Shown here piece after piece: positions 17,670 through 42,493 of a stretch of DNA of 64,000 nt. The stretch is from NCBI GenBank assembly GCA_027310185.1, contig DAIDBH010000018.1:1-64000 (forward strand), read 5' to 3'. The notes beneath the pieces are model-generated. The model did not search any database. It was given only the letters and a program-made list of their open reading frames with translations, and was not told the origin of the DNA. The first letter of the stretch is position 1. Each line of letters begins with the position of its first letter. Origin of the DNA: Thermoplasmatales archaeon (GTDB taxonomy: Archaea; Thermoplasmatota; Thermoplasmata; Thermoplasmatales; Thermoplasmataceae). The position numbers and the translations under genes were made by a program.

Positions 17670-17680
17670 AGGAGGATGAA

Positions 17681-18772
17681 ATGAATAATACGGTCAGTTA
17701 TAATGAAAAATCTGAAATAAAGAAAGACAGGTTGGAAACTTATCCATGGAGGATAACGTTTGACACAAATCCTGATGATTGTAACATGTCATGCATAATG
17801 TGCGAGGAGCACAGTATTTTCAGCCCTTTGAGGAAGGAGAGAATCTTAAAAAACAAACCTCATAGAAGGATGGACTTTGAAATTATAAGGAAAACTGTTA
17901 GTGAAATGGTTAAATATGGATTGGTAGAGGTAATACCATCAACAATGGGAGAACCGCTCCTTTACGAAAATTTTGAAGATATTGTAGATTTATGCAAGCA
18001 AACGGGTGTAAGACTGAACCTGACCACAAACGGAACCTGGCCAAGACTGGGCCCTGAGAAATGGGCACGTCTGATCTGTGAGGTTACAAGTGATGTTAAA
18101 ATTTCATGGAATGGAGCAACTAAGAATACCCAGGAATCAATAATGAAAGGATCACTATTCGATAAGCGCCTCAACGACCTAAAGGTATTTATTGCTACCA
18201 GAGACATGATCGCAGAGTCTACGAAGAAAAGATGCAGGATCACTCTTCAATGTACATTCTTGGAAACAAATGTTAACGAGCTTCCAGACTTCCTGGATAT
18301 GGCAATAGCTCTTGGAGTTGACAGAGTGAAGGGACATCAGTTATGGGTAAACTTTCCAGAGATCTCAGGTTTAGATATGAGAAGGTCAAAAGAATCTATT
18401 GAAAGGTGGAACAATGTTGTGGATAGATGTAATGATATTGTAAGCAGAAGAGTTAATAAATACGGAAACCACATACTACTTGAAAATTTTAACAGGCTTG
18501 AAGTAGGATCGCCAGGAATGATGCCTGGAGAATGGGAATGCCCTTTTTTGGGTAAAGAGGCATGGGTAAATTATGAAGGAAAATTCAACCCATGCTGTGC
18601 CCCCGATGCTGAACGAAAAAAACTCGGTTCATTTGGTAATGTCATGGAAGGAGGTGGCCTGGAATCCATATGGAAAAGTTCAAGTTACAGGAACCTTCTA
18701 AAAAGTTACAGGACAAACAGCATATGTCTGAAGTGCAATATGCGCAAACCTCTCACACTGGTGAGGAAATAA
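17681..18772 (+). CDS. Radical SAM protein with SPASM/twitch domain
   Basis: CNMSCIMC (CxxxCxxC), GEPLL, LTTNGT; C-terminal CPF...PCC...GN...W...CLKC; SD-like AGGAGG upstream. Confidence 0.92.
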   Translation: MNNTVSYNEKSEIKKDRLETYPWRITFDTNPDDCNMSCIMCEEHSIFSPLRKERILKNKPHRRMDFEIIRKTVSEMVKYGLVEVIPSTMGEPLLYENFEDIVDLCKQTGVRLNLTTNGTWPRLGPEKWARLICEVTSDVKISWNGATKNTQESIMKGSLFDKRLNDLKVFIATRDMIAESTKKRCRITLQCTFLETNVNELPDFLDMAIALGVDRVKGHQLWVNFPEISGLDMRRSKESIERWNNVVDRCNDIVSRRVNKYGNHILLENFNRLEVGSPGMMPGEWECPFLGKEAWVNYEGKFNPCCAPDAERKKLGSFGNVMEGGGLESIWKSSSYRNLLKSYRTNSICLKCNMRKPLTLVRK

Positions 18773-18773
18773 A

Positions 18774-20498
18774 ATGAGCGAGTTTAACTCACTGAAGGAT
18801 AAAAAGGAATTAGAAGAGTTATGGGAAGGATCTAAGGTATCAATTGACCTAACACATCACATTTTAAATGGCAACCCCATGTATGGTGAAAGATTTGAGG
18901 AAGTTTTATCATTTCATTCCCCTGGCCTTGCACCTGCCAAGAAAGATCATAAATGGTTTCACATTGATGCACATGGCAGGCCGGTATACAGGGAAAAATA
19001 TGACAGGGTATGGGGGTACTATGAAAATCTTGCGACTGTTTCAAATAATGGTGTATATTACCATATAGATCCAAAGGGAAATTCCGCTTATTCCAACAGA
19101 TTTCTCTGGTGCGGCAATTTCCAGGATAACAGGTGTAGTGTTCAGTACAGTGATTTAAGATTTGGGCACATTCTCGCAGACGGTAAAAAAGCATATGAAC
19201 AAACATATAGATATGCCGGCGATTTCAGAGAGTCATACGCTGTTGTGCAGCTAGATAATGGAATGCATGTCCACATAGATAAATATGGTAAAAGGCTTAA
19301 TGAAAAGGAATTCATCGATCTGACCCCATTCCATAAAGGCATCAGTTGCGCCAGGGATTCGGCTGGCTGGTTTCACATTGATAAAAACGGTGACGGCCTC
19401 TATGATGTAAGGTATGAATACATCGAGCCTTTTTATAATGGACATGCAAAAGTCATTACCAGATATGGAGAAATCAGTATTATTGATGAAGATGGAAGCA
19501 CACTGTCTACAGTAAGAGAACAAATGGAGACTCCACTTCAGGCACTTTCTAATAAAATGGTTGGGTTCTGGAACACAGAACTATTATTTACCATATCCAA
19601 AATGGGCATTATGGACATTCTGCCAGCAACATCCAAGAACGTATCAGAACGTCTTAATCTGGAAGAAAGCAAGGTTGAAAGAATAATGAGGGCACTCTGG
19701 GAGGTAAACCTTGTTTCTAAGGAAGATAATATCTGGAAAACTACAATGGAGGGTTCGCTTTTTAGAAGCGATTCAAGTTATAATGCTAAAGCAGCCATAT
19801 GGAATTGGAGGGAGTTTCATAAAAAACCGTGGGAAAATCTAGGTAGCGCATTGTTTAATGGGGACAAGCACAACAGTGAGGATTCAGGAAAAAAGTTTTT
19901 TGGCAGCATCGAGAAAAATCTCCAGAATCTTAAAATTTATCAGGAAGCGATGGCTTTCTACGCACTGCATGACTATTCACAAATCAGTAACTTAATCCGC
20001 ATAAATGGTGACGAGATTATAGCTGATGCAGGAGGTGGATATGGAATACTGTTATGCCTGCTTAAACAAAAATTTCCCAATATAAGGACCATGCTTTTTG
20101 ACACACCCGGTGTAATAAACTTGGCTAGGAAAAATAATACGAGTTGTAAATTGGAGTTTGTGGAAGGAAATATCTTCGCATCTTTTCCGTTCAAGGCTAA
20201 CGTAATATTTCTATGTAGAGTTCTTCACGACTGGAATGACAAATCTGCTCATATTATACTCAAGAATGCAAGGAATGCATTGCTGGAAGGTGGTTCGATT
20301 TACATTGTTGATCGATTGTTGAATTCAGATTCTCCCAATGGGGGAATGCTGGACATGAATATGCTATGTACAACAGGAGGAAAAGAAAGGTCATTAGAAG
20401 AATTAAGAGACATACTTGAAAATTCAGGTTTTAAAATATCAAATCTCACAACAAACTCAAGATTCGGATTCCTAATAGAGGCAAGGATAGGTGAATAA
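18774..20498 (+). CDS. WG-repeat beta domain fused to class I SAM O-methyltransferase
   Basis: Five to six ~35-aa repeats with HID..G; dimerisation HTH; DAGGGYG, GNIF, RVLHDW, GGKERS motifs. Confidence 0.88.
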   Translation: MSEFNSLKDKKELEELWEGSKVSIDLTHHILNGNPMYGERFEEVLSFHSPGLAPAKKDHKWFHIDAHGRPVYREKYDRVWGYYENLATVSNNGVYYHIDPKGNSAYSNRFLWCGNFQDNRCSVQYSDLRFGHILADGKKAYEQTYRYAGDFRESYAVVQLDNGMHVHIDKYGKRLNEKEFIDLTPFHKGISCARDSAGWFHIDKNGDGLYDVRYEYIEPFYNGHAKVITRYGEISIIDEDGSTLSTVREQMETPLQALSNKMVGFWNTELLFTISKMGIMDILPATSKNVSERLNLEESKVERIMRALWEVNLVSKEDNIWKTTMEGSLFRSDSSYNAKAAIWNWREFHKKPWENLGSALFNGDKHNSEDSGKKFFGSIEKNLQNLKIYQEAMAFYALHDYSQISNLIRINGDEIIADAGGGYGILLCLLKQKFPNIRTMLFDTPGVINLARKNNTSCKLEFVEGNIFASFPFKANVIFLCRVLHDWNDKSAHIILKNARNALLEGGSIYIVDRLLNSDSPNGGMLDMNMLCTTGGKERSLEELRDILENSGFKISNLTTNSRFGFLIEARIGE

Positions 20499-21134
20499 GT
20501 GAAATTTCCTGACTTGAAAATAAACAATGGTGACCATTATGCATTGCTGATAAGGCATGCGGAACGCGGTAATGTAATACCAAATGAAGCCAGCCATACA
20601 ATTAATTTAACCATTAATGGTAAACATGATGCTTTTAACATGGGAATGGAAATGAAAGAAACACTGGGAGATATATATACCAGCCCAATAATAAGATGCG
20701 TTCAGACCGCTTCGTGGATTGTTTACGGTTCCGGGACTAATCGCAGAATTAAGATAAGCAAGAAGCTAGGAGATCCCGGTGCCTGGATTGAGGATGACCA
20801 AATAGCCTTTAAATCTTTCATAGATCTTGGAATTCACAAATTAATAAAGCGATTATTAAACGGGGAGAATGTGCCTGGTATGAAAGACTTCAAGCTTGGA
20901 TTTAGTGATCTGTTAAATTTCATCTCTAAAGAGTTAAAACCCCATAATGGAAATGTCCCTGTGTTCATCTCCCACGATGCAGTCATAGCACCCGTAGTAG
21001 GGTTTGCTCTCAAAACAACCAATCCTGATATAATATTTCCCACATTTTTGGAGGGAACAATAATAATGAGGAATTCATCAGGCTACAAACTCTACTGGCG
21101 GGGAAAGTGGTATCCATTACATTATCCAGATTAG
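20499..21134 (+). CDS. Histidine phosphatase family protein
   Basis: LIRHAER, TSPIIRCVQTA, ISHD motifs. Confidence 0.9.
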   Translation: MKFPDLKINNGDHYALLIRHAERGNVIPNEASHTINLTINGKHDAFNMGMEMKETLGDIYTSPIIRCVQTASWIVYGSGTNRRIKISKKLGDPGAWIEDDQIAFKSFIDLGIHKLIKRLLNGENVPGMKDFKLGFSDLLNFISKELKPHNGNVPVFISHDAVIAPVVGFALKTTNPDIIFPTFLEGTIIMRNSSGYKLYWRGKWYPLHYPD

Positions 21135-22429
21135 CTTCGTGACTCATGCATTAATTTAGTATAAAATTCCATTAGCCTATCTACATGGAATTCAACAGAT
21201 TGTACATCACCGGTATCCGAATAAAGGTATCTTGAATTTCCCAACCTCTTTGCAAGTTCAGGATTTTGGACGAATTTTTCCATCTGCATAGTTAACGATT
21301 TAATGCTTCTGAACTCGAATAGAAGACCATTTCTTTCATTTTCCACATATTCCTTCATGCCACCAGTGGCAGCAGCTATAACAGGCACACCTACCTGTTG
21401 AGCTTCATGTATTACCAGAGGGGAATTCTCCAGCCAAATTGATGGGACTACGATGGCATCAACTTTATTGAACACTTCTTCAACAATTTTATCTCCATTA
21501 AATTCTCCCATCCACTCTATGGAGTTATTTTCATTTTCCGAAACTTTCTCTGATAATTTTCTCAGAAATGTGGTACTATCTGATCGATATCTACCCCAAA
21601 TTCTTAATTTTGCTTTCAATTTCATATTTGCAAAAGCCCTTATCAGATAATCAACACCTTTTGCAGGAATATGAGTGCCAATATACCCAAAAACGAATTG
21701 CTCCTCCTTTTCCCTTATTCTGTTTGATAACTTATTAAGATTGAAACCATAGTCTAGAAGGGAAACTTTACCTGCCTCATGTGGAAAAGATGTTTTGAAG
21801 CTTTCGATCACAGTTCTGGAAGGGGAAATAAACAAATCAACGTCCCTTACCGCATTTCTCGCAAACTCCATTCTGGAATTTACCCAACCTGTCCAATAGG
21901 CAACGTCCTTTCTGTCATCATCCTTGCCCGTAAAATATCGACTGTAACAAATCCGTGCGCATTTACTATCTTCCTGCTCATCACAGGAATTCCATGGTTC
22001 ACCGTTTAAATTCCATTGAAGGAATTGGCCTCTTGGACACATAAGCCAGAAATCATGCAATGTGTAAACAGAAGGGATGTTCATTTTTTTAACCTCAGAT
22101 GGTAGGGAAAGGGAAAGGTGGTTCAGATGCTGAAAGTGTACAATATCTGGCTTGACGGTTTCAAGAATTCCTCTTAGCTTAACATTGACCTCTTCGCTTA
22201 AATATCTATCTTTCGTCCTGGAAAGGTTAATAGTATATCTTACCAGAGCACCATTATTCTCTACATCTCTTCTTAGGTTATACTCAGGTAAAAATGGGCT
22301 TTCTTCCCTACTGAAAATAAAGACTTCATTTCCTCTCTTTAAAAGTTCCTCAGTAATCGTCTTCGTATAGTTCTCAGAACCTGCATTGTACTCAGGTGGA
22401 TAACCATGTATTACCTGAAGGATCTTCAT
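21131..22429 (-). CDS. GT4 family glycosyltransferase with Cys-rich insertion
   Basis: MKILQVIHGYPP..AGSE; HDFWLMCPRG..C..C..C; KGVD; PSIWLENSPLVIHEA. Confidence 0.92.
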   Translation of the reverse strand: MKILQVIHGYPPEYNAGSENYTKTITEELLKRGNEVFIFSREESPFLPEYNLRRDVENNGALVRYTINLSRTKDRYLSEEVNVKLRGILETVKPDIVHFQHLNHLSLSLPSEVKKMNIPSVYTLHDFWLMCPRGQFLQWNLNGEPWNSCDEQEDSKCARICYSRYFTGKDDDRKDVAYWTGWVNSRMEFARNAVRDVDLFISPSRTVIESFKTSFPHEAGKVSLLDYGFNLNKLSNRIREKEEQFVFGYIGTHIPAKGVDYLIRAFANMKLKAKLRIWGRYRSDSTTFLRKLSEKVSENENNSIEWMGEFNGDKIVEEVFNKVDAIVVPSIWLENSPLVIHEAQQVGVPVIAAATGGMKEYVENERNGLLFEFRSIKSLTMQMEKFVQNPELAKRLGNSRYLYSDTGDVQSVEFHVDRLMEFYTKLMHESRS

Positions 22430-23360
22430 GAAATAGAAATTTATAATTACTATAAAATCTTAATCTCCGGTTTATTTAAGGACAATCTATTATTTTTCTG
22501 CTCCAATTTCTATTTTTATCTTTGGATCTGCGAGAATGTGATTAATGAAAAAGTAGAATCTTCACCTCGTATTTGATCATGATTAAATATTCTTTATTTC
22601 TGATTGTATTTTGTGACGGAACCAGATAGAATAGGTCCGATCTAATCAAAATCCATAGGATCTGATATAGTGAGTAGAGCGAATTGCCAATTGTTTCAAT
22701 CCCCTTGTACCATTTATGAAAACACAGCTGTATAAGGTTCTTTACGCGTCCTCCCTTTGAAGGTGCATTCAGTGTTTTGGGAAATCTCAAATTATTGCTC
22801 AACAGTCATGTTAAAAAGCTAATCCGCATTTAAGGGAGCTCCCCTGGATAAAACTTTATTTAATAATTGAAAGGAGGATCAATTTGAGTGCACATTAAAA
22901 TCGCTTATCTGGAAATTCTTAATTATCTTGTGCATAATCTATCTTCCGATCATATTGACTGAAGCTTTACTGTCTCACAAATTGAAAATGAATGACCACT
23001 CAGACCCGTGCGATGACGTAATTGGAATGTACGACTTCTCCGAAGTTCTTTCAGTGTTAACAGGTATCAATTTCTAAAAAGTTTTAAAGGATCACTCGAA
23101 CGAATTAAAAGGATTATCGTTCTATCTATCAGGTAAGAAAGCGGAGTTAAGAGAAGAGAGGTTTTCAGAGAATACAATATCAACCATAGTCACCCTCAAT
23201 CTGATATCTTCCTACTCACTATGGTATGGGTTTAGTAGAGCGAAAGTTCATTCAAAAATTCCTTCCAATAGCTTGAGAGCAAGGATGAGTGAAAATCCAA
23301 AGGAGATAATGAAGATCGCCATTTGTTGAAATATGAGACACCCTATCAATCAAAATTATA

Positions 23361-25001
23361 TCACCTAGCCCTCAGCCAATCATCTTTCATATAAACGTCG
23401 ATATATCCATCCTGAGAAATGCAAAAAACAAAATTCCTTAAATTTTTTTTACTTCCATTAATCATGCATTGATATGCTGAGTAATGTCTTCCTCCACCCA
23501 TGGGTTGGTTTGTGTTCGCCCCAATTTTCTTAAGAAAGTTTGTCCAGTATGATTCGCATTCGGGCTTGTCCACATTAATAATGTTTCCATATCCTTTGAT
23601 AAACAGATTATTATTTAAATCAATATTAAGTCTTGTTATGCCATCTACAGTACACAATTGATAAACCCACCTCCCAATCTTTACTAAATAATCCTCTGAT
23701 GAATTATCTGGATCATATTTGATGGCAAAAGGACTATTGAGGTTATCTCCTATTTTACTTTTTGATTTGTCTAATTTTCCTGTTTCCACTACCGATGCGC
23801 TATCATCAATAATAACCTCTATAGTGGCCCCATGATTATGGTATCCAAGCTGATAAGAAAGTCTCGCAATTCTATATATTGTGGCTAATAAATCCGGGTT
23901 TGCATCTGACGATACACTATCTTGATTTAGTTTTTTTGTTAAAATGGTTGCCTTGTGGTAAAGATCGACATATCTCCAACTTCCAGCAAAGTAATCTATA
24001 ATCGGATCATAATCCATTTGGATTGAAATAGTACCATTTTGTAATAATATGATATTAAGATTTTTTCCATCTTCTTCTGGATCGGGTAATATGTAATCTA
24101 ATCCATAGAGCATTGATAACGGGGCACCTTTGTGATCTGACCAGAAATGATCTATTACTATTGAATCTTCTGATGGCGTCTGCTTGGAAAATTTAAGGAC
24201 TGCCACTCCGCGGCCAAAGCTTTTTCCAGCTTCCTCTAAATCAGATACAAATTCTCTTTCCGGTTTCGATTTCATATTCATTAAAGATGTAATCCTTTCT
24301 TCGAGTTTAGTCTTAAGTTGTTTTCCTTCCAACTCAAAATCGTCATTGGAAGAAGATGAATCATCCTGAGAGAATTGAGCAATAGTATCCCAAGATCCAT
24401 ATATCCCCAAGCTTAAATCTAATGTGATAGGATATTCTTCCACTCTCCTTTCTCTTATATACATTATCCCCTCTATGACATTGCTTATTCCCATCGAAAA
24501 ATTCTTGGTATTATCACTTGTTAGGATTTCGTTTAGACGAGAAACGGTTTTCTTAAAATGTATTTCTGCTGGATTTGTATCCTCAATCAATGATTTATAA
24601 TCTTCTTGCATATTTAAAAGAAATTGATTTAAGAAGGCAAAATATCTTGGTACTGTCAATGAAATCAACTGTCTATAACTCAAATTTTGATTATTATTAG
24701 TCTCACTAAATACTTGTAGCAAAGTGGCAGCTACACCACATGCAGCTGGGTTATTAGAAAATAGATTCCATATGTTATCTGTCTCCAAAAATAAACTATT
24801 TACCATTTTTGTCCTAATTTTGAACATTTTATCATTCACTCCTTGAAGTGAATTCAAAAGACCTGCAAGGAACTCATCTCTTATGCTTTCAATAGTAACT
24901 TCTTTTTCTTCTTTGGTTTGCAACTTACTGAACACAATTTCTCCTGAAAGGCCAAAAATTTGACTAAAAGCATCGTTTAATTTTGATTCGTTGTTAATCA
25001 A
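23361..25001 (-). CDS. Diadenylate cyclase (DisA_N/DAC) domain protein with long N-terminal region
   Basis: C-terminal HGATI...LCTVDGI...GGRHYSA...CISQDGYI corresponds to DAC motifs (GA, DGA, RHR/RHxSA, vSqDG); 4-bp ATGA overlap with upstream gene. Confidence 0.72.
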   Translation of the reverse strand: MINNESKLNDAFSQIFGLSGEIVFSKLQTKEEKEVTIESIRDEFLAGLLNSLQGVNDKMFKIRTKMVNSLFLETDNIWNLFSNNPAACGVAATLLQVFSETNNNQNLSYRQLISLTVPRYFAFLNQFLLNMQEDYKSLIEDTNPAEIHFKKTVSRLNEILTSDNTKNFSMGISNVIEGIMYIRERRVEEYPITLDLSLGIYGSWDTIAQFSQDDSSSSNDDFELEGKQLKTKLEERITSLMNMKSKPEREFVSDLEEAGKSFGRGVAVLKFSKQTPSEDSIVIDHFWSDHKGAPLSMLYGLDYILPDPEEDGKNLNIILLQNGTISIQMDYDPIIDYFAGSWRYVDLYHKATILTKKLNQDSVSSDANPDLLATIYRIARLSYQLGYHNHGATIEVIIDDSASVVETGKLDKSKSKIGDNLNSPFAIKYDPDNSSEDYLVKIGRWVYQLCTVDGITRLNIDLNNNLFIKGYGNIINVDKPECESYWTNFLKKIGANTNQPMGGGRHYSAYQCMINGSKKNLRNFVFCISQDGYIDVYMKDDWLRAR

Positions 25002-26413
25002 TTTATCTTCCTCTCACTCTGATCTTTTTTCAAAATAGATTCTATCCGTCCTTTTAGTGTTGCAACAATAGTGTCTAGTGTCCATAGTTCTCCTCGAAGC
25101 TTGTCTATGCTGATTAAGAAATCATCTCTTAAAGGGCTGTCGACTTCCATCATGTTTAAACGTTGTTTAAAACTCTCAAACTCTTTCCTTTTTTCACTTT
25201 GGAATTTGAATTCTTTATTAATTATGAGTATTTGATCTCTAATATTATCCCATATACCAGAATCAAGGGTTTCGCTTAATATCTTTTTCGAACTTCTTCC
25301 ATTTGATTCATTGAGAACGTGTCCTAAAGCATCTATTAGAAATGATCTGCAAAGAATTGATGTTGCAGTATATCTATGGTCGTGATCAGGTATGTCATTT
25401 GGCCAATCAAAAGTTTTATAAAAAATCTCCCCCAGTCTAATTAAATTTTGTATTTCCAAATCTCTCTGTTTTTGATTATATACTTCCTTTGGTTGGTCAT
25501 CTATTAAATTTCTTACAAAGGTTAGAAAATTATTAGAAGTTAGCGGTTTGATCTTCCTGCCATCTTTAGTTTTTTCGCCTTGCCATCTTCCAACTACTTC
25601 GAACCAAAATGAATCTGGTTCCTCTGAAACTCTCGATACAATCCAACTCGCAATTATATCACCCTTGTCTTGTACATTCTGAATTAGGCTGCAAGCTTCT
25701 ATCTCACTCACATTCTCTATAGAATTCTCTGATCTTTGGCGCTCCAATGCCAAATCAAAGGCTACCGCAACTTTTGCAATTTTTTCACCCCCGCTCAATT
25801 TCTTCTGACCCCTGTTTAAAAATATTGCCATCCCTATTGACTCTATTTGTTCAGCATCAAGGTATATTTTAATTGGTATCATTGGCGATCCTATTGAATT
25901 AGGTCCTATAGACTCTTTCTCTGGAGTATATTTTTTCATTATATTTGACGAGTAATGTTTTGGTGCTGTAAGGCCTTTTTTTGACGAAATATAGTTTTTA
26001 TACTTCTTCTTTTCTTCCTCCTCCTCTTTCTTTTGCAAATCAGATTTAAGTTTAGGGTCTAACTCTATCAGTCCATTAAATCTATGCCTTCCATCGATTA
26101 AATACAAATTCTTTGGTTCCGAAGTTCTGTCTGCACTTTTTTCGAGAATTGCAACAAGTGGCGATAAAAGACCATAAGTACCCATTTGCTCCATTAATTC
26201 GTCTCTGTGTTGCGGGCGCATTGCTCTGGGGTTATACTTATCAGCCTGTGTAATGTCATCAACACAGTCCAATGGAACCATGCCAATAATATAATTAATA
26301 TCCCTTGGATTCGTACCCACTTCTATTTTCTCATTTCCTTCTATATAACGTGTCAATTCGAATGGATGAGAGGTATAAGTTCCAGTTACCCTATTTAATT
26401 TAAATAGTTGCAT
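24998..26413 (-). CDS. DGQHR/ParB-like (DndB/DpdB-like) protein
   Basis: PRAMRPQH, LYLIDGRHR, FLNRGQKKLS motifs typical of DGQHR domains. Confidence 0.8.
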   Translation of the reverse strand: MQLFKLNRVTGTYTSHPFELTRYIEGNEKIEVGTNPRDINYIIGMVPLDCVDDITQADKYNPRAMRPQHRDELMEQMGTYGLLSPLVAILEKSADRTSEPKNLYLIDGRHRFNGLIELDPKLKSDLQKKEEEEEKKKYKNYISSKKGLTAPKHYSSNIMKKYTPEKESIGPNSIGSPMIPIKIYLDAEQIESIGMAIFLNRGQKKLSGGEKIAKVAVAFDLALERQRSENSIENVSEIEACSLIQNVQDKGDIIASWIVSRVSEEPDSFWFEVVGRWQGEKTKDGRKIKPLTSNNFLTFVRNLIDDQPKEVYNQKQRDLEIQNLIRLGEIFYKTFDWPNDIPDHDHRYTATSILCRSFLIDALGHVLNESNGRSSKKILSETLDSGIWDNIRDQILIINKEFKFQSEKRKEFESFKQRLNMMEVDSPLRDDFLISIDKLRGELWTLDTIVATLKGRIESILKKDQSERKIN

Positions 26414-26471: not shown

Positions 26472-28028
26472 TCATTTCTTGAATTCCAAATCTGATAATT
26501 TCGTCCCCACATGAGTATCAAATTCCTCAAGGATTGGTGCAAATGTTTTATAATATAATCCATTCATCAAAGCGTAGCTATATTCATATTTTTTCCTGAC
26601 AACTTCCATAACAGTTACAGTTTTCATTCTCAAGTTATAGATATGTTTTTCTGAGGTCATATTAGTAAGTCTAAAATCATAAGATAAGATTTCTGGTCTC
26701 ATTTCATCCTTCCAATGAACGGGTCCAAATAATCCACTCATCGTAATAACATCAAAATCTAAGTTTTCTTGAATATTATAATTTTCTCTTATTTCATTTT
26801 TAATTTTTCTATGACTATTGCTTTTGGAATAGGGTTTTTTGGACGAACACTCCAAAATAAGTAGAATATGTCCCCTAGATTTAAATTTTGATAAGGGAAA
26901 TGTATACTCTTTTTTAATTTGTTTTCTCGTTGAAAACGATATACTGCCCATGGTTGTTGGAGAATAATCCACTGCTTTAATTCTGTTCTTTTCCTGATAA
27001 ATGTTGTGTAGAGCTATATAAGCCATGATATCTGATTTAGTATATTCATCAGTCGTTGCTTTATTCAAAAAGATGTTAATTATCTCATTTGCTTCTATTT
27101 CTTTCAGTTTTTTGCAGGCGTAACAACTACACCCTTTTAGTGCCTTCGGATTGAATGATTGATATGAATTGGTCTGTTTGTCGTACCATTTATGGTACAT
27201 TGCAGCTCTGGCATATGTAGAATTATCATAGGAATATTTTATGCGATCCTCAACACGTCTTACAACTTGAGATCCTATCCCAAAAAAATGAACAGACTTT
27301 TCGTCTCCAAAGTCATTCTTTATCAATGTTATAGTATAATTTGCATTATCTATTACCAAATTACGTTGACTTGTTAAAGGAACTTGGCTTCCAAGAGCAA
27401 AATTAATTCTCTCGTCTGAAATATCAACATTTTGTTTCAATTTATTGTAGAAATACTCAATTTCAACTCTATTTCTTCCATGAATCACAAGATAAATTTC
27501 CTTTGTGTTTTCTTTCGAAATGTCTAAAAGTTTCTTTATATTATTTAAATTTAGATATAACTTTTTTTGAAAATCCTCCCGACTATCATATGGAGATATC
27601 GGTATATCCAAGTTACATATTTTATTAGCCCCATATTCACTTTGAAGTTTATATATTCCTTCCTGGTTTGCTTCAACTCCCCACTTTGATAAATCCACCT
27701 TGTCTCCTTGTAGGAACTGATATCCCCCACTATCAACAAAAATCGATCCATTTTTAAAGAATCTATCTGTCTCCTTAGACAAAGAAAGAGGAGAGTCACC
27801 AATCCAACTTTGCCAAGCCCCATCAGAAAGACCATATGCAGTGAAGTGAAATGCTTGAACCATTATTTTAGGTTTTCTAACAGTTTTTGATAGATCAGCT
27901 TTGATTTTCTTCCATATGCCTCCATTTCTATCTAATGGGGGGGGACCCGTCATTAGATGCAGTACTGGATAGAAATCTTTCACATATGGCAAATACATAA
28001 TGACAATAAAACTTTCGCCATTTCTCAT
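26472..28028 (-). CDS. DpdA-like guanine transglycosylase with C-terminal DUF5591/YaaA(DpdC)-like domain
   Basis: VDSGGYQ, NLDIP, IHG, ALGS, VHFFGIG, SYDNS, Zn site CSCYAC...ALHN; tail ILECSSKKPYS...SGLFGPV...YDFRL; no PUA domain seen; defence-type neighbours. Confidence 0.85.
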   Translation of the reverse strand: MRNGESFIVIMYLPYVKDFYPVLHLMTGPPPLDRNGGIWKKIKADLSKTVRKPKIMVQAFHFTAYGLSDGAWQSWIGDSPLSLSKETDRFFKNGSIFVDSGGYQFLQGDKVDLSKWGVEANQEGIYKLQSEYGANKICNLDIPISPYDSREDFQKKLYLNLNNIKKLLDISKENTKEIYLVIHGRNRVEIEYFYNKLKQNVDISDERINFALGSQVPLTSQRNLVIDNANYTITLIKNDFGDEKSVHFFGIGSQVVRRVEDRIKYSYDNSTYARAAMYHKWYDKQTNSYQSFNPKALKGCSCYACKKLKEIEANEIINIFLNKATTDEYTKSDIMAYIALHNIYQEKNRIKAVDYSPTTMGSISFSTRKQIKKEYTFPLSKFKSRGHILLILECSSKKPYSKSNSHRKIKNEIRENYNIQENLDFDVITMSGLFGPVHWKDEMRPEILSYDFRLTNMTSEKHIYNLRMKTVTVMEVVRKKYEYSYALMNGLYYKTFAPILEEFDTHVGTKLSDLEFKK

Positions 28029-28040
28029 AGTATGAGCTGT

Positions 28041-28475
28041 TCACCTTAAACTGTTACCTTTTTTGGACATTTTCTCTAATTCGTTAATTAAATAAACAAC
28101 TAATTTTTCTTTGTCTTTCCATTTGCTTGTTACTTTTGGGAGACCATAACCATTTTCAGATATTATTTTCTTAATTGTTGCTAACTCAAAACCTAGGAGA
28201 TATTCTTTAAATTTTTCTCTTTCGAGTTCTTCAAATTTTGAAAGAATTTCTGTTATTTTTGGAGGAATTTCTGGGTTAGTACCTTTCACACTCCTTTTCT
28301 TTCTGTAGGTGTTATCATTATCTTTTATATGAGTCGAAGAGAGCTCATCTATTAGTATGGAAAGATCCAATGAAACTTCCTCAAGTCTTCTCTTGATACC
28401 CTCAAGCTTTTTAACACTAATGTTTGTTGATTTTTTTCCTTTGGCTTTATTTTCCTGCTCGCTCAAGTATAACAC
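28041..28475 (-). CDS. Small helical hypothetical protein (ParA partner)
   Basis: Overlaps ParA stop; coiled-coil N-terminus; Lys-rich C-terminal KWKDKEKL; true start may be TTG at 28466. Confidence 0.65.
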   Translation of the reverse strand: MLYLSEQENKAKGKKSTNISVKKLEGIKRRLEEVSLDLSILIDELSSTHIKDNDNTYRKKRSVKGTNPEIPPKITEILSKFEELEREKFKEYLLGFELATIKKIISENGYGLPKVTSKWKDKEKLVVYLINELEKMSKKGNSLR

Positions 28476-29313
28476 CTGTTAATTCCTGTATCTCTTCCCT
28501 TATATCACCATATCCTAAAAGTTGTCCGCTTGTTGGACCATTTATCCAATTTGAATCTCTTCTTATTTCAACCTCTCTTTCTAAAATGGCAGAATTTTTT
28601 ATAAATGGATGCAAAACCTCAGGGTAATTTTTAGTTCTAGTCCACACTTCTAAATTGCTAACATATTTTTTATGAGTATTATTATTTGAAGAATACTTAG
28701 AGATTATAATGCCCAATGAGTGTTTTTTTATACTATAAGTTTCACCAATTTCTTTAAGAAGTTCCGGTATTCCGTAAGTAGATAGGTAGTTGGGAATGAC
28801 GGGTATCAGGTAGAAATCGCTTAATCTTAAGCCATTCCTAGAAACTAATCCTAAATTTGGTGGAGAATCAATTATGACGTTTCTATATGCTTTTAATTTG
28901 TATCCGAGCTCCCTGACTAATATCTCTTCTACAGAATCCCTACCCTCCGGATTATTTACAAATTCGTATAATCTCTCTTGTAAGTATGCCAGAGAAGGAG
29001 AACACGGAAGTAGGTCAAGAGTTCCAGTTTTATCTCTCAGTTTACCAATATCTTTGAAGATCACTTTATCAAAATCAAAGAAACTCTTTTTCTCTATATA
29101 ATCCCTAAACAACCTGGTCAAGGTCATATCCTTGTTGTTTTTTTCTCCCCATGCTTCTTCATCTACAAAAGACAATGTCAGATTTATCTGAGGATCAAGA
29201 TCTATTAGCAATGTCTTTTGCCCATAATAAGATGCCATGTATTCTCCAACTAAACCTGCAATTGTTGTTTTTCCAACTCCCCCTTTCATATTTATAAAAC
29301 TCAATTTTACCAT
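28447..29313 (-). CDS. ParA/MinD family ATPase
   Basis: Deviant Walker A MKGGVGKTT, IDLDPQ, IIDSPPN. Confidence 0.92.
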   Translation of the reverse strand: MVKLSFINMKGGVGKTTIAGLVGEYMASYYGQKTLLIDLDPQINLTLSFVDEEAWGEKNNKDMTLTRLFRDYIEKKSFFDFDKVIFKDIGKLRDKTGTLDLLPCSPSLAYLQERLYEFVNNPEGRDSVEEILVRELGYKLKAYRNVIIDSPPNLGLVSRNGLRLSDFYLIPVIPNYLSTYGIPELLKEIGETYSIKKHSLGIIISKYSSNNNTHKKYVSNLEVWTRTKNYPEVLHPFIKNSAILEREVEIRRDSNWINGPTSGQLLGYGDIREEIQELTGVILERAGK

Positions 29314-29320
29314 TTACACA

Positions 29321-29779
29321 TCACCTTGTCAGTAAGTCATTTATCAAACTTGCGTTATACGCTCTTATACCAATAGAACATTGTTCACTATTTAAATTCA
29401 TTCCACTATAAGTTAGGTTGGCTGAACCCATGTAAAAAAAAGTAGATGTTATTACTGCCTTTTTATGCAGGTTATCTTCAATCTTTAAAGTTACATTCTC
29501 GTTGCTTAAGTATTCAGCGAAATTTCTTTCTATGCCCGTATAAGAATCTTTTCGTGTCTTGATCAATAGTTTCAACATCCTAACTTTGCTGATTTCGAAT
29601 AGAAAATTCAGGAACGAACTCAACTGTACGTATTTATTATTAGGTATATTAATTGGAAAATCAGTTAAATATGGTGAAATCACCGTGATCTCCCTTTGCT
29701 CTAGCAGTATAATTTGTGCTAACATGAAAGGAAGCGAATTACAGTTCAACCCATATAACAGATTGGTCTTTGTCTTCAT
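29321..29779 (-). CDS. Phospholipase D-like nuclease (DpdK/DrmC-like)
   Basis: ISPYL; LHKK...GSANLT.SG..N.E single HKD-type motif; overlaps helicase stop. Confidence 0.85.
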   Translation of the reverse strand: MKTKTNLLYGLNCNSLPFMLAQIILLEQREITVISPYLTDFPINIPNNKYVQLSSFLNFLFEISKVRMLKLLIKTRKDSYTGIERNFAEYLSNENVTLKIEDNLHKKAVITSTFFYMGSANLTYSGMNLNSEQCSIGIRAYNASLINDLLTR

Positions 29780-32700
29780 ATATAAATCCCTCCAAACTAG
29801 CTAGCTTTTCCTGATATTTCTCTTCAAACCGACTCTTTGAAATTTCTTTCTTGATCGAACACACATAAAAATTAGCAAGAGTTCGACTAATAGTTTTACC
29901 CTGATCTTCCTTTTCTTCACAACCATTTAAATATAAACAATCAACACATCCATCAGGGCATTGAATTATGTGCTTAAAATCTGGATCATCTGCTAAATTT
30001 ATAAGTTTGTCCCCATCACCTTTTGAGATGGCACCGTTGTAATCTCTGCTTACTTCTTTCGCCTTTCTTTCACTTATTCTTCGCAATTTTAGATTATTTA
30101 TTCTATGATTTAATCCTGATTCGACCATACTGTTTGGTTCTCCCAGTTTGATGTCGATTTGATTGGTCCTACATGTGCTGAATCTTTCAAGTGATTTCAT
30201 AATCTCTGTAGGATCAATATTGATCTTTTCTATGAACGAGTCTATTATGCCTGTATCAGTGTCATTTTCCTCAAAAACGTAAATTGAATTTCCTTCAATT
30301 TTATATTTGAGAAATTCTGTGCTCACTCCAGAAACGAATGATACAGTTTGAAGGTATAGGTGAGCGACACTATGCACATATGAATATAAAATCTCTCCCT
30401 CGGTGAATTTTCGATATTTCTCTAAGAACTTTAGATTTTCTAAATCTATACTTTCGAGGGGTTTTATTCTAAACTCAAGAACCGGCATATTTTCTATCTT
30501 TTTTGCTAAATTAGGTTCAAACCTGAATTCACTTTTCCATCTTTTCTCTTTTTCTTCATCTTTGAAAGTTAAAAACACAGATTCCCCTTTAATAACATAT
30601 GTAATATTAGCAGTTGTCCTGTGTATACCGAAGCTATTACTCTCTTCGTTTTCCTTTTTGTCTAAATATATTTTGGAATTTGGTTCCGAGAAAATTTTGC
30701 TATTTTTTAGTTTTCCTCCGCACTTTGGACAATATCTTTCATGATGATCTCCTATATAGAAACAACGAATGCAGGCGTTAAATTCATTATCTTCATCATT
30801 AGTCATAGAAATGTCTCTTGTCTTTATTTCTAGAGGAACCATATAATATTTTTTAGGATCATTTCCATCATAAAATAGCCTTTCCATTCGTCCATCTAAT
30901 TCTACTGTTACTACGGTACGATCTGACTCAAAATGCCAATCTTTCAATGAATATTCGGTACTTACGTAGTATGCACGGTCATCTTTTACGATAGCTGGCA
31001 ATCTGTGAGGCATATATCTATTAATAAGATCGTGGATAGAAATTGATTCGAGTCTTCCGTCATTATGAGACAATAGAATACTCTCTCCCTTCCCAAAAAA
31101 GTTCTCAGGCACAATATATTTTGGGTATAAATCCATAAGGCTACTCTTATTCGCAGTTTCTTCTTCAGTTTTAACGGACAATGTATACAAGAACCAACTG
31201 TTGTATAGGTACTTTATAATACTCAAAGAGTCCCAAACATCATAGATTTTCTGCAACCATTTGAGACTTGAGATTTCTTTGCCCAAGGAGTACAATCTCT
31301 CTAAATCTTGGGAAATATTGTGTCCTTCTAAAGTTATTATCAAAGGAAGTATTTCATTTAAAATTCTTTCTGTATTTTTGTCTGGATTTAAATAGTAGTT
31401 TATGTCGACAATTATGTCGTTTAAGGGCTTTAATTGAATTCTTTCTATTTTGTTCTTTTCCTTAAATATTACTTCAATATTATTAAGATTCTTGAGAAAT
31501 TCGTGAAGTTTTTCATTAATTTTCTCGTCTAACTTGACTTCCAGAAGTCCAGTTATCCTCGATCTTATCGAATCAAAGGGAGACTCAGCGCCTGAAAAAC
31601 CATCTATTATACGCCTCTTTTCTTCTTCCCTTGATTTATATTGTTTTTCAATTATTCTACCGACTTCTTTTCGTTTATAACTTACGTCTAAAAGTCTTCC
31701 CGCAGTGTTGTCTTCTATAAATATTTTGAAATTTTCTGCTGTGTTATTTAAAAACGAATTAATTAAAGCTCCCGTCTCATCTTTATAGTCTCTATCCACA
31801 TACCTACCAGAGTTTAATTCAATAATAAAATTATTTTTGGCTTTATCCAATACGTTTCTTACCCACCTTGAATATGGGTTATCTGGATTCAAAGGGAGAA
31901 TATATTCTTCATCAAGCATTCTGTCAAGATTATTAAAATAAAATATATCTGTCGAATCCTGTCCTAAAACCATGTAAATCTTAGTGTTCTCTTGCTGTTC
32001 CCTACCAGCTCTCCCTTTCCTCTGAATAAAATTAAATATAGTGTATGGTGGCCTGTATTGAACTATAGTGGATATTTGTTTATCGTCTATGCCCAATTCC
32101 AGAGATGAAGTTGTAAAAACTATGTCGGTTTTGTTAATTTCATAAGTTGAATCTTCCGCCATAGATCTATCGACTTTCAAGACTGATGTTTTTGGTTTCA
32201 TTCCGTTTTGAAAAATAGCTTTTGTAAGTCCAAACCAGCATTCTCCTTCTTTATAAGGTCCAGAAACTTTACAGGACTGAAGATTGCAATTTTTTTCCGA
32301 TCCAACTGGGCATTTATAATCAACAAATTCAGAACTTAAAAATTCTTCTTTGTTGAGCCTAAAATTATATAATTTTTTGTTCCCATCTGCATCCTTAAAA
32401 TTTTTCTCCTGCCTTATCAAGTTATCCCGTGAATCGAAGAATGCCAAAAGTCTTTCCTTTCCATTGAGATTTACGGAGTGACCGAGAAGCATAAGCAGTT
32501 GAATAAGAGTAGATGCTGAGGTACTCCTATTTCTCACTTTCTTAGATTTTATTAAGAAATACTCCTCAATTGGAACTGTTGTTTCCTCATTTTTATTTAA
32601 GTCCATTTCTGACGGCCTAATTTCTAATATGTTATTTTCTCCAGTTAATTTTTTTGCAAAATTGACTGAATTAGGTAAGGTGGCGCTAGAAATAACAAAC

Positions 32701-33686
32701 TTTAATTTCGGATTTTCTCTTTTAAATTCTCTAAGGAAAGCAGAAAGATGAGATCCATAGACCTGGTAGTAAATGTGTGCCTCGTCAAATACTATTGCAG
32801 AGGTTTTTCTTAATATTTCTTCAAAATCCGGTCTAAAAGAGATTGAATTTAATGACTCAAAAGTAGTAATTATAATATTAGGCTTCTCTTTAAGAATTCT
32901 ATCTTTCGATACATAGATTTTTAAGTTCTCTACCCCGCAACTCTTATTTGAACATTTGAAATCATTGATTTTCTCGTTATAATATATCCCCATTATAGAA
33001 CCATTATTACATATTGGGCACTTTCGTTCCTTAAAGATAACCCAAACCTGCTCTTTTATTTCCTTTTTTTCGAACAGATTATTATTATATTTAAAAGTGT
33101 GTTCATCTATAGACCCAATACCTCCGAATAAAATACCAACACTCAAATCCCTATAACCAGAATTTTTAGCATAAAATATGTTTTTAATAAGTCCAAATAA
33201 CTGATCGATAGCTAGAGCAATTCTAGGATATACCAGAATAGAGTGTGAGTTTCTTTCCATTGAATCCCATAGAGAAGGCAACAAAAACACATTTGTTTTT
33301 CCAGACCCTGTCGGTGCTTGTAAAATGACAACTCTATGCGAATCGTCTCCACTGATCATTTCTTTTATTTTCTTTAAACCATTTATCTGAAAGTCCGAAA
33401 ACGTGTAGTCGCTTAAACCAGGCCCATCAACTAATACGGATTTTAAAAATTCATAGAACTTCTTATCATAGCCCTTTAGTTCATCTATAGGTACATGCCT
33501 ATAAGTGGTAAGTTTTACCCTTGCAAATGTTTTCGTTTCATCGACAAGTTCTTTCCCCTTTTCTCCAGGTTCCATCCTTCTCTTAAGTTTAGTTATTATT
33601 TTTGCTAAATCTTCCTTGTTCCCTAATAAGTCCTCAGATTCATTTGCGTATATTATATCCATTTTTGATATTTTTTCGCTACTCAT
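29739..33686 (-). CDS. Large DEAH-box helicase with Zn motifs and DUF1998-like C-terminus (DpdJ/DrmAB-like)
   Basis: APTGSGKT, YPRIALAIDQ, DEAH, SAT, TSSLELGID, QRKGRAGR; CPIC/C..SC, CIRC/CPKC; HSVAH...CPDGCVDCL. Confidence 0.88.
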   Translation of the reverse strand: MSSEKISKMDIIYANESEDLLGNKEDLAKIITKLKRRMEPGEKGKELVDETKTFARVKLTTYRHVPIDELKGYDKKFYEFLKSVLVDGPGLSDYTFSDFQINGLKKIKEMISGDDSHRVVILQAPTGSGKTNVFLLPSLWDSMERNSHSILVYPRIALAIDQLFGLIKNIFYAKNSGYRDLSVGILFGGIGSIDEHTFKYNNNLFEKKEIKEQVWVIFKERKCPICNNGSIMGIYYNEKINDFKCSNKSCGVENLKIYVSKDRILKEKPNIIITTFESLNSISFRPDFEEILRKTSAIVFDEAHIYYQVYGSHLSAFLREFKRENPKLKFVISSATLPNSVNFAKKLTGENNILEIRPSEMDLNKNEETTVPIEEYFLIKSKKVRNRSTSASTLIQLLMLLGHSVNLNGKERLLAFFDSRDNLIRQEKNFKDADGNKKLYNFRLNKEEFLSSEFVDYKCPVGSEKNCNLQSCKVSGPYKEGECWFGLTKAIFQNGMKPKTSVLKVDRSMAEDSTYEINKTDIVFTTSSLELGIDDKQISTIVQYRPPYTIFNFIQRKGRAGREQQENTKIYMVLGQDSTDIFYFNNLDRMLDEEYILPLNPDNPYSRWVRNVLDKAKNNFIIELNSGRYVDRDYKDETGALINSFLNNTAENFKIFIEDNTAGRLLDVSYKRKEVGRIIEKQYKSREEEKRRIIDGFSGAESPFDSIRSRITGLLEVKLDEKINEKLHEFLKNLNNIEVIFKEKNKIERIQLKPLNDIIVDINYYLNPDKNTERILNEILPLIITLEGHNISQDLERLYSLGKEISSLKWLQKIYDVWDSLSIIKYLYNSWFLYTLSVKTEEETANKSSLMDLYPKYIVPENFFGKGESILLSHNDGRLESISIHDLINRYMPHRLPAIVKDDRAYYVSTEYSLKDWHFESDRTVVTVELDGRMERLFYDGNDPKKYYMVPLEIKTRDISMTNDEDNEFNACIRCFYIGDHHERYCPKCGGKLKNSKIFSEPNSKIYLDKKENEESNSFGIHRTTANITYVIKGESVFLTFKDEEKEKRWKSEFRFEPNLAKKIENMPVLEFRIKPLESIDLENLKFLEKYRKFTEGEILYSYVHSVAHLYLQTVSFVSGVSTEFLKYKIEGNSIYVFEENDTDTGIIDSFIEKINIDPTEIMKSLERFSTCRTNQIDIKLGEPNSMVESGLNHRINNLKLRRISERKAKEVSRDYNGAISKGDGDKLINLADDPDFKHIIQCPDGCVDCLYLNGCEEKEDQGKTISRTLANFYVCSIKKEISKSRFEEKYQEKLASLEGFIYEDKDQSVIWVEL

Positions 33687-34197
33687 TTGAAATCATCTTC
33701 TTCAATTCCTCGATCTTCGCTCCAATCTCCTTCCCCTTCTCGGTCAGTTCGATCCTGCTCTCCTGCGGGTACTTGGAGCAGTCTATCTCCTGCCTCACAA
33801 CTTTCATTCTTTCCAGACGTCTTAAAATTTCAGTTGATCCTGGGAGTTTATCATTGATCTCCTTCAAGTTCATTGGTCCGTTCCTGAACAGGTGCAGTAT
33901 GAATGCACAACGGTCGGTTGCTATGAACTCCTTCCCATTAGAAATTGTTTTTAACAATTGCATTTCATTTGAATCCTTCGGATACTCGGGTTGAAGATTT
34001 AAAGTTTTATCTTTCTCATTATCCATTTCCTTATCAATATCCCACGACATTATCCCCGGTGAAACCATTGTCGAAATGTAAAAACTACTCGCGTACCTAT
34101 TAATATAAGTCAAAGTTGACCTGTTATCATATCTTATTTCATTGAAAACTCTTGCACAACTGTCATATTGACATGTTTTTGAAAGAGTATCAATCAT
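33679..34197 (-). CDS. HxlR-type winged-helix regulator with unknown N-terminal region
   Basis: C-terminal GPMNLKEI...LRRLE...YPQESRIELTEKG; 8-bp overlap with helicase start. Confidence 0.7.
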   Translation of the reverse strand: MIDTLSKTCQYDSCARVFNEIRYDNRSTLTYINRYASSFYISTMVSPGIMSWDIDKEMDNEKDKTLNLQPEYPKDSNEMQLLKTISNGKEFIATDRCAFILHLFRNGPMNLKEINDKLPGSTEILRRLERMKVVRQEIDCSKYPQESRIELTEKGKEIGAKIEELKKMISNE

Positions 34198-42492: not shown

Positions 42493-42493
42493 A

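Follow-up and report, generated by a model that had tools for sequence, protein, structure and literature searches.

What is a protein with the fold of a diadenylate cyclase (DAC) doing among genes that resemble those of a DNA-modification system in an archaeon? The question is raised by a stretch of 64,000 nucleotides from a Thermoplasmatales archaeon (NCBI GenBank assembly GCA_027310185.1, contig DAIDBH010000018.1, positions 1 to 64,000 of the forward strand; hereafter the window), in which a gene on the minus strand (23361..25001) encodes a protein of 546 amino acids (aa), here called the DAC-like protein. Its C-terminal ~200 residues constitute a divergent DAC/DisA_N fold, which is well supported by structural modelling. 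The gene belongs to a conserved three-gene core, together with genes for a ParB-like protein and for a fusion of a tRNA-guanine transglycosylase (TGT) domain with DUF5591, and the linkage of these genes is well supported as well. Our tentative proposal, to which we give somewhat less than an even chance, is that the protein belongs to a Dpd-like system for 7-deazaguanine modification of DNA, where it would act as a nucleotide cyclase that is coupled to DNA in the manner of DisA. So far, DACs have been associated with osmoregulation, with DNA-damage checkpoints and, very recently, with anti-phage signaling, and 7-deazaguanine in DNA has been described for bacterial Dpd islands and for phages. 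A link between a DAC-fold protein and an archaeal TGT-ArcS/ParB-like core would join these two fields, and it provides a clonable three-gene system for asking which role a DAC plays beside a DNA-modifying enzyme and whether archaeosine-type bases occur in archaeal DNA.

In direct family scans, the full DAC-like protein had no match in Pfam, NCBIfam, PDB sequences or PHROGs, and a PADLOC scan gave only chance-level matches (E > 0.01). The DAC (DisA_N) fold of the C-terminal domain (residues ~347-546; 23364..23963, minus strand) was recognized by Foldseek, by the profile of a family alignment called A3, and by motifs. An AlphaFold2 (AF2) model of the 546-aa protein, built on 18 sequences, reached a predicted local distance difference test (pLDDT) value of 84.3 and a predicted TM-score (pTM) of 0.90. 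When this model was compared with the PDB, all 34 rows listed among ranks 1-50 were DAC domains, i.e., those of CdaA, DacA, CdaM, DacM and DisA, with probabilities of 0.93-1.00, TM-scores (target) of 0.39-0.56 and E values of 0.017-0.2, figures that relate a query of 546 aa to domains of ~150 aa. A reading of the window made earlier from the letters alone (hereafter the sequence-only reading) had proposed a comparison of the C-terminus with DisA_N by AlphaFold, and the modeled C-terminus indeed folds as a DAC. When searched against all PDB sequences, the A3 profile gave seven matches at E ≤ 10, all of them DACs (E 0.0066-1.1), and these alignments are in register over the H-G-A-[IL]-I, DGA and G-x-R-H-R-A-A motifs and the S-E/S-Q strand. 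Pfam DAC matches were obtained for 8 of the 38 members of A3, all of them weak (best E 1.5e-4, 21.8 bits against a cut-off of 27; PF02457), and no other Pfam family was matched by more than one of the 38. As a lead only, neighbors in the ESM Atlas, with scores of 0.86-0.93, belong to clusters labeled as DAC-domain proteins, including proteins bearing DACNH or DACNG.

The motifs of the domain are H388-x-H390-G-A, D453-G454-I, G503-G-R505-H506 and S529-Q-D531-G532, the last three of which read V-D453-G454-I, G-G-G-R505-H506-Y-S-A and I-S529-Q-D531-G532 in their immediate context in the window protein. By the register of the alignments with PDB sequences, D453 is the Asp of DGA; D453 and D531 would be the counterparts of the two residues that bind metal in CdaA. 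D453, G454, S529, D531 and G532 are invariant in all 38 members of A3. R505 and H506 are invariant in the 17 members of the long clade (see below), five of which also have Arg at the third position of the RHR motif. This degree of conservation speaks for a functional protein. The variant DAC motifs noticed in the sequence-only reading are thus all three present and, since their key positions are invariant in 17/17 long-clade relatives, they are no chance match. H388 and H390 are also invariant and lie beside the active-site strand, but they are specific to this family and fall outside the canonical DAC motifs that align with the DACs of the PDB.

The relatives on which these counts are based were collected in two ways. 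A word-indexed search retrieved seven clusters with 30-100% identity to the DAC-like protein, one of which carries the NCBI name hypothetical protein and comes from a Candidatus Thermoplasmatota metagenome-assembled genome (MAG). An exhaustive search of 1.84 billion representatives gave 39 proteins at E ≤ 1e-3, 14 of them at E ≤ 1e-30. Members of a long group (~520-580 aa) align along the whole window protein. Those of a short group (~410-505 aa) are matched by phmmer only at residues ~254-404, yet they align over nearly their full length in the joint alignment A3, which comprises 38 of 44 proteins (17 of the long and 21 of the short clade); two near-copies of the window protein (P0002 and P0004) and four fragments of 137-303 aa (P0020, P0024, P0027 and P0029) were excluded. 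In a quick IQ-TREE tree of A3, the split between the two clades has an SH-aLRT value of 100. The standard DAC models miss this whole family, of which 39 representative clusters were found by the present search.

The part of the protein preceding the DAC domain consists of two regions. The N-terminal region (residues 1 to ~262; 24216..25001, minus strand) is helical and contains the motif R183-E-R-R-V-E-E, the conserved form of which is R-E-x-R-x-E-E. It is followed by a domain that is rich in β-strands according to the secondary structure in the AF2 model (residues ~263-346; 23964..24215, minus strand), with the motifs G-R264-G265-V, H290-x-x-A-P294-L-S and G340-x-W342-x-x-x-D346; in this domain, G265, P294, Y299, G340 and W342 are invariant and H290 is nearly so. 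Neither region belongs to a known family: residues 1 to ~350, correctly described before as unassigned sequence preceding the DAC, have no counterpart among Pfam, NCBIfam and PDB-sequence families, and the Pfam models DACNG, DACNH, DACND and DACNK, which represent putative sensor domains found in other DACs, matched none of the 38 members at E 0.1. The possibility that the middle domain is a degenerate duplicate of the DAC was ruled out, as hhalign gave a probability of at most 1.2% and found both the N-terminal and the middle part to be unrelated to the DAC part.

The open reading frame (ORF) is real and encodes a conserved protein. It starts with TTG (25001..24999), which shares four nucleotides (TTGA) with the TGA stop codon of the upstream gene. 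This TTG is the true start, because an in-frame TGA lies 15 nucleotides upstream of it with no other start codon in between and because the alignments with relatives begin at residue 3-4. The upstream gene (24998..26413, minus strand) occupies a position like that of dpdB and encodes a 471-aa protein that is predicted, from its AF2 model (pLDDT 84.6), to have a ParB fold. Its top Foldseek matches are ParB-CDP (6sdk), pNOB8 ParB-N (5k5d), Noc, PadC and sulfiredoxin, with probabilities of 0.84-1.00 and E values from 4e-3, and it matches the PHROG annotated as ParB-like partition protein (E 3.5e-4). The protein alone has no match in Pfam or NCBIfam, and among 17 aligned relatives, Noc is matched by two and ParB and DGQHR by one each, the DGQHR match being to TIGR03187 (E 2.1e-4) in a relative and not in the window protein. 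In the sequence-only reading, the DAC-like gene was considered to be translationally coupled, through an ATGA overlap, to a gene encoding a DGQHR protein. The overlap of four nucleotides stands, but its letters are TTGA, and the partner, which is of the ParB/DGQHR type by its fold, carries the motif D107-G-R-H-R111 instead of DGQHR. Co-folding of residues 1-450 of the ParB-like protein with the DAC-like protein gave a score of 0.06 and a mark of 0.32, which argues neither for nor against binding.

The third gene of the core lies upstream of the one for the ParB-like protein (26472..28028, minus strand) and encodes a 518-aa fusion of a TGT domain, similar to DpdA and archaeal TGT (arcTGT), with DUF5591, as identified with Pfam, NCBIfam and PDB sequences. 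In archaeosine synthase ArcS, DUF5591 is described as the C1 core, which carries out catalysis and contains the motif PC-x3-KPY-x2-S-x2-H (PMC10516641). The Pfam match of the fusion protein to DUF5591 is above cut-off (E 1.9e-8) and that to TGT below it (E 1.9e-4). The NCBIfam models TgtA, tgt_general and ArcS all score below cut-off as well (tgt_general 30 bits against 47.6), and PADLOC found no match to DpdA. Among PDB sequences, the best match is arcTGT (1iq8, E 0.0022), and AF0587 (2q07) is matched at E 0.01. Nevertheless, the DSGG, DNSTY, GCSCxxC (the CxCxxC zinc site), LHN and C-x3-[KR]PY-x2-S-x2-H motifs are kept in all three loci in which the gene was compared (see below); the C1 motif reads E-C-SSK-KPY-SK-S-NS-H in the window. 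At the Pfam level, the fusion has no tRNA-binding PUA domain.

Whether these three genes belong together was addressed by comparing neighborhoods in three loci, i.e., the window and two loci, L001 and L002, which were confirmed among the 18 stretches that matched in a scan of genome contigs. L001 and L002 are on Thermoplasmata MAGs with a GC content of 0.63-0.65. Their DAC-like proteins (442 aa, essentially P0039) belong to the short clade, and hence they are separated from the window protein by the deepest split in the family (SH-aLRT 100 in the quick tree). As the DAC-like protein is 94% identical between L001 and L002, these two loci represent one lineage. Both contain a 413-aa homolog of the ParB-like protein of the window (27% identity, E 2e-19, in the comparison with L001). 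The stop codon of the ParB-like gene and the start codon of the DAC-like gene overlap by four nucleotides in all three loci, as TTGA in the window and as ATGA in L001 and L002. A gene for a TGT-DUF5591 fusion (607 and 665 aa), 36% identical to that of the window, is also present in L001 and L002, where it is convergent with the DAC-like gene and within four nucleotides of it. Thus, the TGT-DUF5591, ParB-like and DAC-like genes are a conserved three-gene core. Whilst the sequence-only reading had recognized the pair of ParB-like and DAC-like genes, its functional framing was incomplete as it overlooked the TGT-DUF5591 gene of the same core. Furthermore, close relatives of the DAC-like protein and of the ParB-like protein have coinciding values for the longest contig (15839 and 11287), a weak hint which suggests that two relatives of each share a contig.

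The genes around the core differ between the lineages. In L001 (6135-6683) and L002 (7643-8149), a TIR-like gene, 78% identical between the two loci, is located just upstream of the ParB-like gene; its product matches Pfam TIR_2 at E 1.4e-5, which is below cut-off, and PADLOC ThsB at E 2e-4. In the cassette of the short clade, the TIR-like gene is a candidate for an effector or a sensor. Searches of the window by tblastn with the TIR-like proteins of L001 and L002 gave nothing below E 0.2. The similarity between L001 and L002 at the DNA level starts at the TIR-like gene, and the flanks differ, with a transposase and a resolvase in one locus and genes for a family 2 glycosyltransferase (GT2) and an epimerase in the other; hence, the mobile unit comprises the TIR-like, ParB-like, DAC-like and TGT-ArcS genes. 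Genes for type II N6/N4 DNA methyltransferases are found within a few kb of the cassette in L001 (11139-14614) and L002 (15210-17959), and in L001 the cassette is flanked by genes for a resolvase and a DDE transposase; both features are consistent with a mobile DNA-modification neighborhood.

In the window, the core is at the end of a longer row of co-oriented genes, all on the minus strand. The row starts with a gene for an HxlR-like winged-helix protein (33679..34197; Pfam HxlR, E 1.3e-5, 25.4 bits, cut-off 20.8). The next gene (29739..33686) encodes a DpdJ-like DEAD/DEAH helicase of 1315 aa (NCBIfam DpdJ, E 1.5e-45, 155 bits against 800; PADLOC DpdJ, E 2.8e-47), which also matches Pfam DEAD, Helicase_C and ResIII and, weakly, DpdF models. 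It is followed by a gene for a DpdK-like protein of the phospholipase D (PLD) type (29321..29779; 152 aa), which matches DpdK in NCBIfam (E 4.9e-11, 42.5 bits against 100) and PADLOC (E 2.4e-12) and PLDc_2 in Pfam (E 4.6e-6). Between the PLD and TGT genes are a gene for a ParA/MinD-type ATPase (28447..29313; Pfam AAA_31, E 1.2e-29, and CbiA, E 7.8e-15) and, overlapping its end, a gene for a 144-aa protein (28041..28475) without a match in Pfam, NCBIfam, PADLOC or PHROGs. These two genes are absent from L001 and L002; a pairing of ParA- and ParB-like proteins in an operon of the restriction-modification type is unusual. Separate genes for DpdD, E, G, H or I were not found in the row with NCBIfam and PADLOC, and with Pfam, NCBIfam and PADLOC, no match to DpdC, i.e., to DUF328/DUF6884, was found on any operon protein, which rules out that the DAC-like protein is DpdC.

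How could the products of this row work together? We infer the activity, the product, the DNA substrate, the base written, the gating by DNA or the ParB-like protein and the output as follows. In Salmonella, DpdA inserts preQ0 in DNA, which requires ATP hydrolysis by the ParB-like protein DpdB, and DpdC converts preQ0 to 7-amido-7-deazaguanine (ADG) (PMC10164549). In phages, DpdA together with a protein containing the ArcS core is reported to give DNA with deoxyarchaeosine (dG+) and dPreQ0 (PMC6884629). If the DpdA/DpdB pair and the phage combination of DpdA and ArcS are taken as models, the TGT-ArcS fusion would swap guanine in DNA for preQ0 and then convert the nitrile into an archaeosine-type amidine, whilst the ParB-fold NTPase, whose gene is placed like dpdB, would supply the ATP hydrolysis for the base exchange. 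The DUF5591 domain would then be the obvious stand-in for the nitrile-modifying step that is otherwise performed by DpdC. Together with the DpdJ-like helicase, the DpdK-like PLD nuclease and the ParA-like ATPase, the three core proteins may form a reduced archaeal Dpd-like restriction-modification island. As the DAC-like protein retains the acids for metal binding and Arg-His in the phosphate-binding motif, it may bind ATP, and paired DAC domains may make cyclic di-AMP (c-di-AMP) or a related dinucleotide; in vitro, defense-associated DACs are reported to make c-di-AMP or cyclic UMP-AMP (cUA) (10.64898/2026.08.10.743927). The N-terminal and middle domains, with the ParB-like partner on DNA, might gate the cyclase, as DNA gates DisA, and the dinucleotide might signal in which state the DNA or the modification machine is. 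This signal could be received by the linked restriction or effector genes or by the c-di-AMP network of the cell itself; since overexpression of dacZ was reported to be lethal in Haloferax volcanii (PMC10249747), a dedicated effector would not strictly be needed.

Several observations weigh against this proposal, and the first of them concern the domain itself. The window protein has no Pfam DAC match even at E 0.1 and thus fails the curated DAC model, and none of the Foldseek matches of the protein in the PDB reaches E 0.001. In place of the Ala of DGA, 15/17 long-clade members have I, L, M or V, whereas Ala is present in 18/21 of the short clade. The short clade, in turn, retains R505 in 13/21 and H506 in 2/21 members and, with this loss of R505-H506, cyclase activity is not obviously a trait of the whole family. 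The same drift, together with Pfam DAC scores that are all below cut-off and the description of inactive DAC-related domains (DACNH; 10.64898/2026.08.10.743972), would suit an inactive DAC-fold scaffold, or a regulator that binds ATP or c-di-AMP and tunes the ParB-like/TGT machine. We consider such a role rather improbable, because neither the two acidic metal ligands nor the Ser-x-Asp-Gly turn vary among the 38 members, which span a very deep split, and R505-H506 is kept in 17/17 of the long clade, a conservation pattern that is unusual for a dead enzyme.

Gene context also limits the cyclase proposal. This context comes from only two independent lineages, and at the Pfam level no receptor or effector domain for cyclic nucleotides was recognized in the operon, nor a receptor domain in the rest of the window. 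In addition, the DAC-like gene keeps a fixed place next to the genes for modification and not next to the effectors, which vary; a role in modification chemistry would explain this no less well than signaling. The DAC-fold domain could then be an accessory that uses ATP for nucleotidyl transfer or hydrolysis during base exchange or maturation and makes no second messenger. It might activate an intermediate, finish the ArcS-type reaction in place of the radical S-adenosylmethionine (SAM) partner RaSEA, which is absent here, or add a further group to the base. The DAC-like gene indeed accompanies the TGT-ArcS and ParB-like genes and not the effector genes, which vary between loci, and it takes the third position of the modification operon, the place of dpdC in bacterial Dpd systems (PMC10164549; PMC5699537). 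Moreover, conservation of the metal-binding acids in 38/38 members while RHR drifts would be expected if the chemistry differs from cyclization, and the invariant, family-specific H388 and H390 lie beside the active-site strand, outside the canonical DAC motifs. Still, we regard this alternative as unlikely, albeit deserving of serious attention: no DAC-fold enzyme with a reaction other than cyclization appears in the literature examined, the sequence names no substrate and, since DUF5591 would already supply a nitrile-modifying activity (PMC10516641), no missing step is demonstrable. A bolder version, in our estimate a long shot, is that a machine for DNA hypermodification has co-opted the DAC fold as one of its obligate enzymes and not as a messenger synthase, either for nucleotidyl transfer to, or other processing of, DNA-borne 7-deazaguanine, or for making a non-canonical dinucleotide that serves solely to license the TGT/ParB-like writer. 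If true, either would mean a new reaction or role for the DAC fold and an archaeal DNA-modification system of unreported composition, and the former would also mean a DNA modification that has not yet been described.

Another question is whether the DAC-like gene instead acts on its own in the defense repertoire of its surroundings. Positions 1-34200 of the window have a GC content of 0.31-0.40, as compared to 0.41-0.47 at 36-56 kb, and this low-GC block is probably a defense island, without a tRNA gene at its edge. It also contains genes for an IS110 transposase (79-1236), an OLD-like AAA_15/TOPRIM ATPase (1322-3328), a PLD-helicase-DUF3427 protein (6736-9900), a fragment of an rve integrase (11930-12352) and a UvrD plus PD-(D/E)XK helicase-nuclease (13033-15774). 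An imperfect direct repeat of 28 nucleotides with 79% identity (5953-5980 and 32858-32885, 26.9 kb apart) is probably due to chance, as one copy lies inside the DpdJ-like gene and the DNA is AT-rich. In the part of the window with higher GC, outside the island, are further genes of a defense type, i.e., for an AbiEii-type nucleotidyltransferase toxin (41665-42558, minus strand) and a Schlafen-group-3-like helicase (58434-60311, plus strand).

Directly downstream of the DAC-like gene, ~930 bp (22430..23360) contain no convincing gene, as had been noticed before: the only ORFs are of at most 86 aa, the one of 86 aa belongs to no Pfam or NCBIfam family, and there is no Rfam match or terminator-like site. 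The next co-oriented gene, 930 bp downstream (21131..22429, minus strand), encodes a family 4 glycosyltransferase (GT4) with strong generic glycosyltransferase matches in Pfam, which barely passes the Pfam model GT4-conflict (E 3e-6, 26.9 bits against 26). Convergent with it is a row on the plus strand (16683-21134) for an NAD-dependent epimerase/dehydratase, a radical SAM protein with a SPASM domain, a 574-aa protein with WG repeats and an O-methyltransferase domain, and a 211-aa protein without a family; this row looks like a set for sugar or peptide modification.

The setting in a defense island, the position in one row and orientation with the DpdK-like PLD and DpdJ-like helicase genes, and the existence of defense DAC systems (10.64898/2026.08.10.743927; 10.64898/2026.08.10.743972) could all be explained by a free-standing signaling gene, of a CBASS-like or a guard/decoy type, that targets the PLD/helicase of the operon or is itself toxic, the ParB-like protein being a mere sensor. 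However, DpdJ/K-like genes, i.e., those for the helicase and PLD, are absent among the scanned ORFs of L001 and L002, where the trio nevertheless occurs. This also weakens the idea of a signal from the DAC specifically to the PLD/helicase, a possibility raised in the sequence-only reading. Hallmarks of defense DACs are lacking, with DACNG and DACNH found in 0/38 members and with no S2TM-β, 2TM-β or CD-NTase partner among the Pfam matches of the operon and the window, and the conserved TGT-ArcS gene would be left unexplained. A free-standing signaling gene thus seems very improbable to us. As L001 and L002 lack the DpdJ/K-like genes and the window lacks the TIR-like gene, the trio is kept across the deepest split in the family, whilst the presumed effectors vary. 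For viral or plasmid versions, tblastn searches with the DAC-like protein and P0043 against plasmids and with P0043 against phages gave no match, and a fold search of BFVD for viral look-alikes found nothing with a probability > 0.20. Fused "Rosetta-stone" forms were not found in a search of longer proteins, which is weak evidence according to the tool's own note.

With the tentative proposal of a DNA-coupled cyclase in a Dpd-like system in mind, the locus can be compared with known systems. The bacterial Dpd system of Salmonella Montevideo consists of DpdA, B and C plus DpdD-K. DpdC is assigned to DUF328 (PMC5699537; PMC12839542) or DUF6884 (10.1101/2025.02.24.639861), and a GATOR-GC survey reported dpd islands in eight bacterial phyla (10.1101/2025.02.24.639861). 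The window row shares with it a TGT-family gene beside a ParB-fold gene, the DpdJ-like helicase and DpdK-like PLD genes, and the logic of 7-deazaguanine restriction-modification (PMC10164549). In contrast, the window has no match to DpdC or DpdD-I, its TGT is fused to ArcS C1/DUF5591, its host is an archaeon, its scores with Dpd models are far under the NCBIfam cut-offs, and Dpd has no third gene for a DAC-fold protein. Thus, the window row corresponds to Dpd only in part.

Among DACs, DisA consists of an N-terminal DAC followed by a linker and a helix-hairpin-helix (HhH) domain. The DAC-like protein resembles it in the DAC fold, DisA being among its Foldseek matches, and in the proposed coupling of a cyclase to the state of DNA. 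In the window protein, however, the DAC is C-terminal, behind unrelated helical and β-rich domains. There is no Pfam match to HhH, and the ParB-like partner would need to provide the contact with DNA. The housekeeping diadenylate cyclase of archaea, DacZ/CdaZ, is recognized by standard DAC models. The window protein is, likewise, an archaeal protein with a DAC fold, but it is missed by the Pfam DAC model and has a different N-terminal architecture and genomic context. From work on DacZ it is clear that this general group of archaea makes use of c-di-AMP (PMC10249747).

Two kinds of defense DACs have been described (10.64898/2026.08.10.743927; 10.64898/2026.08.10.743972), i.e., DS-2C/CdaG, a protein of ~550 aa with the architecture DACNG-DACNH-DAC that is part of a CBASS variant, and the minimal PanS/DisA_N proteins of ~150 aa, which form Panoptoo/PanDA with S2TM-β effectors. 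With its 546 aa, its C-terminal DAC behind two unassigned domains and its location in a defense island, the DAC-like protein resembles DS-2C/CdaG, but the DACN* models match none of the 38 members and a CD-NTase partner is absent. It differs from Panoptoo/PanDA by its length and by the absence of an S2TM-β or 2TM-β partner. As their defining architectures were tested and not encountered, the protein is no member of DisA, DS-2C/CdaG or Panoptoo/PanDA. A text search of the two preprints found zero mentions of ParB, DndB, Dpd or transglycosylase. In full-text searches, no paper turned up that combines DGQHR with diadenylate cyclase, or DisA/ParB/TGT with conflict systems, and a combination of 7-deazaguanine and diadenylate led only to works that were unrelated as judged by title and abstract. 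A DAC-like protein in a 7-deazaguanine DNA-modification cassette is therefore apparently undescribed, although the Galperin 2023 census of DACs and the supplements of the preprints, which were outside the search, may contain an earlier listing.

Finally, the TGT-DUF5591 protein shares the catalytic and zinc motifs of TGTs and the ArcS C1 motif with the arcTGT/ArcS pathway and with DpdA2 plus ArcS of Vibrio phage nt-1. It differs from them in that both activities would reside in one protein, without a PUA domain in Pfam, whose gene is linked to ParB-like and DAC-like genes. Judged by these analogies, the system in the window would work most like Dpd, with an extra component that resembles DisA or a defense DAC.

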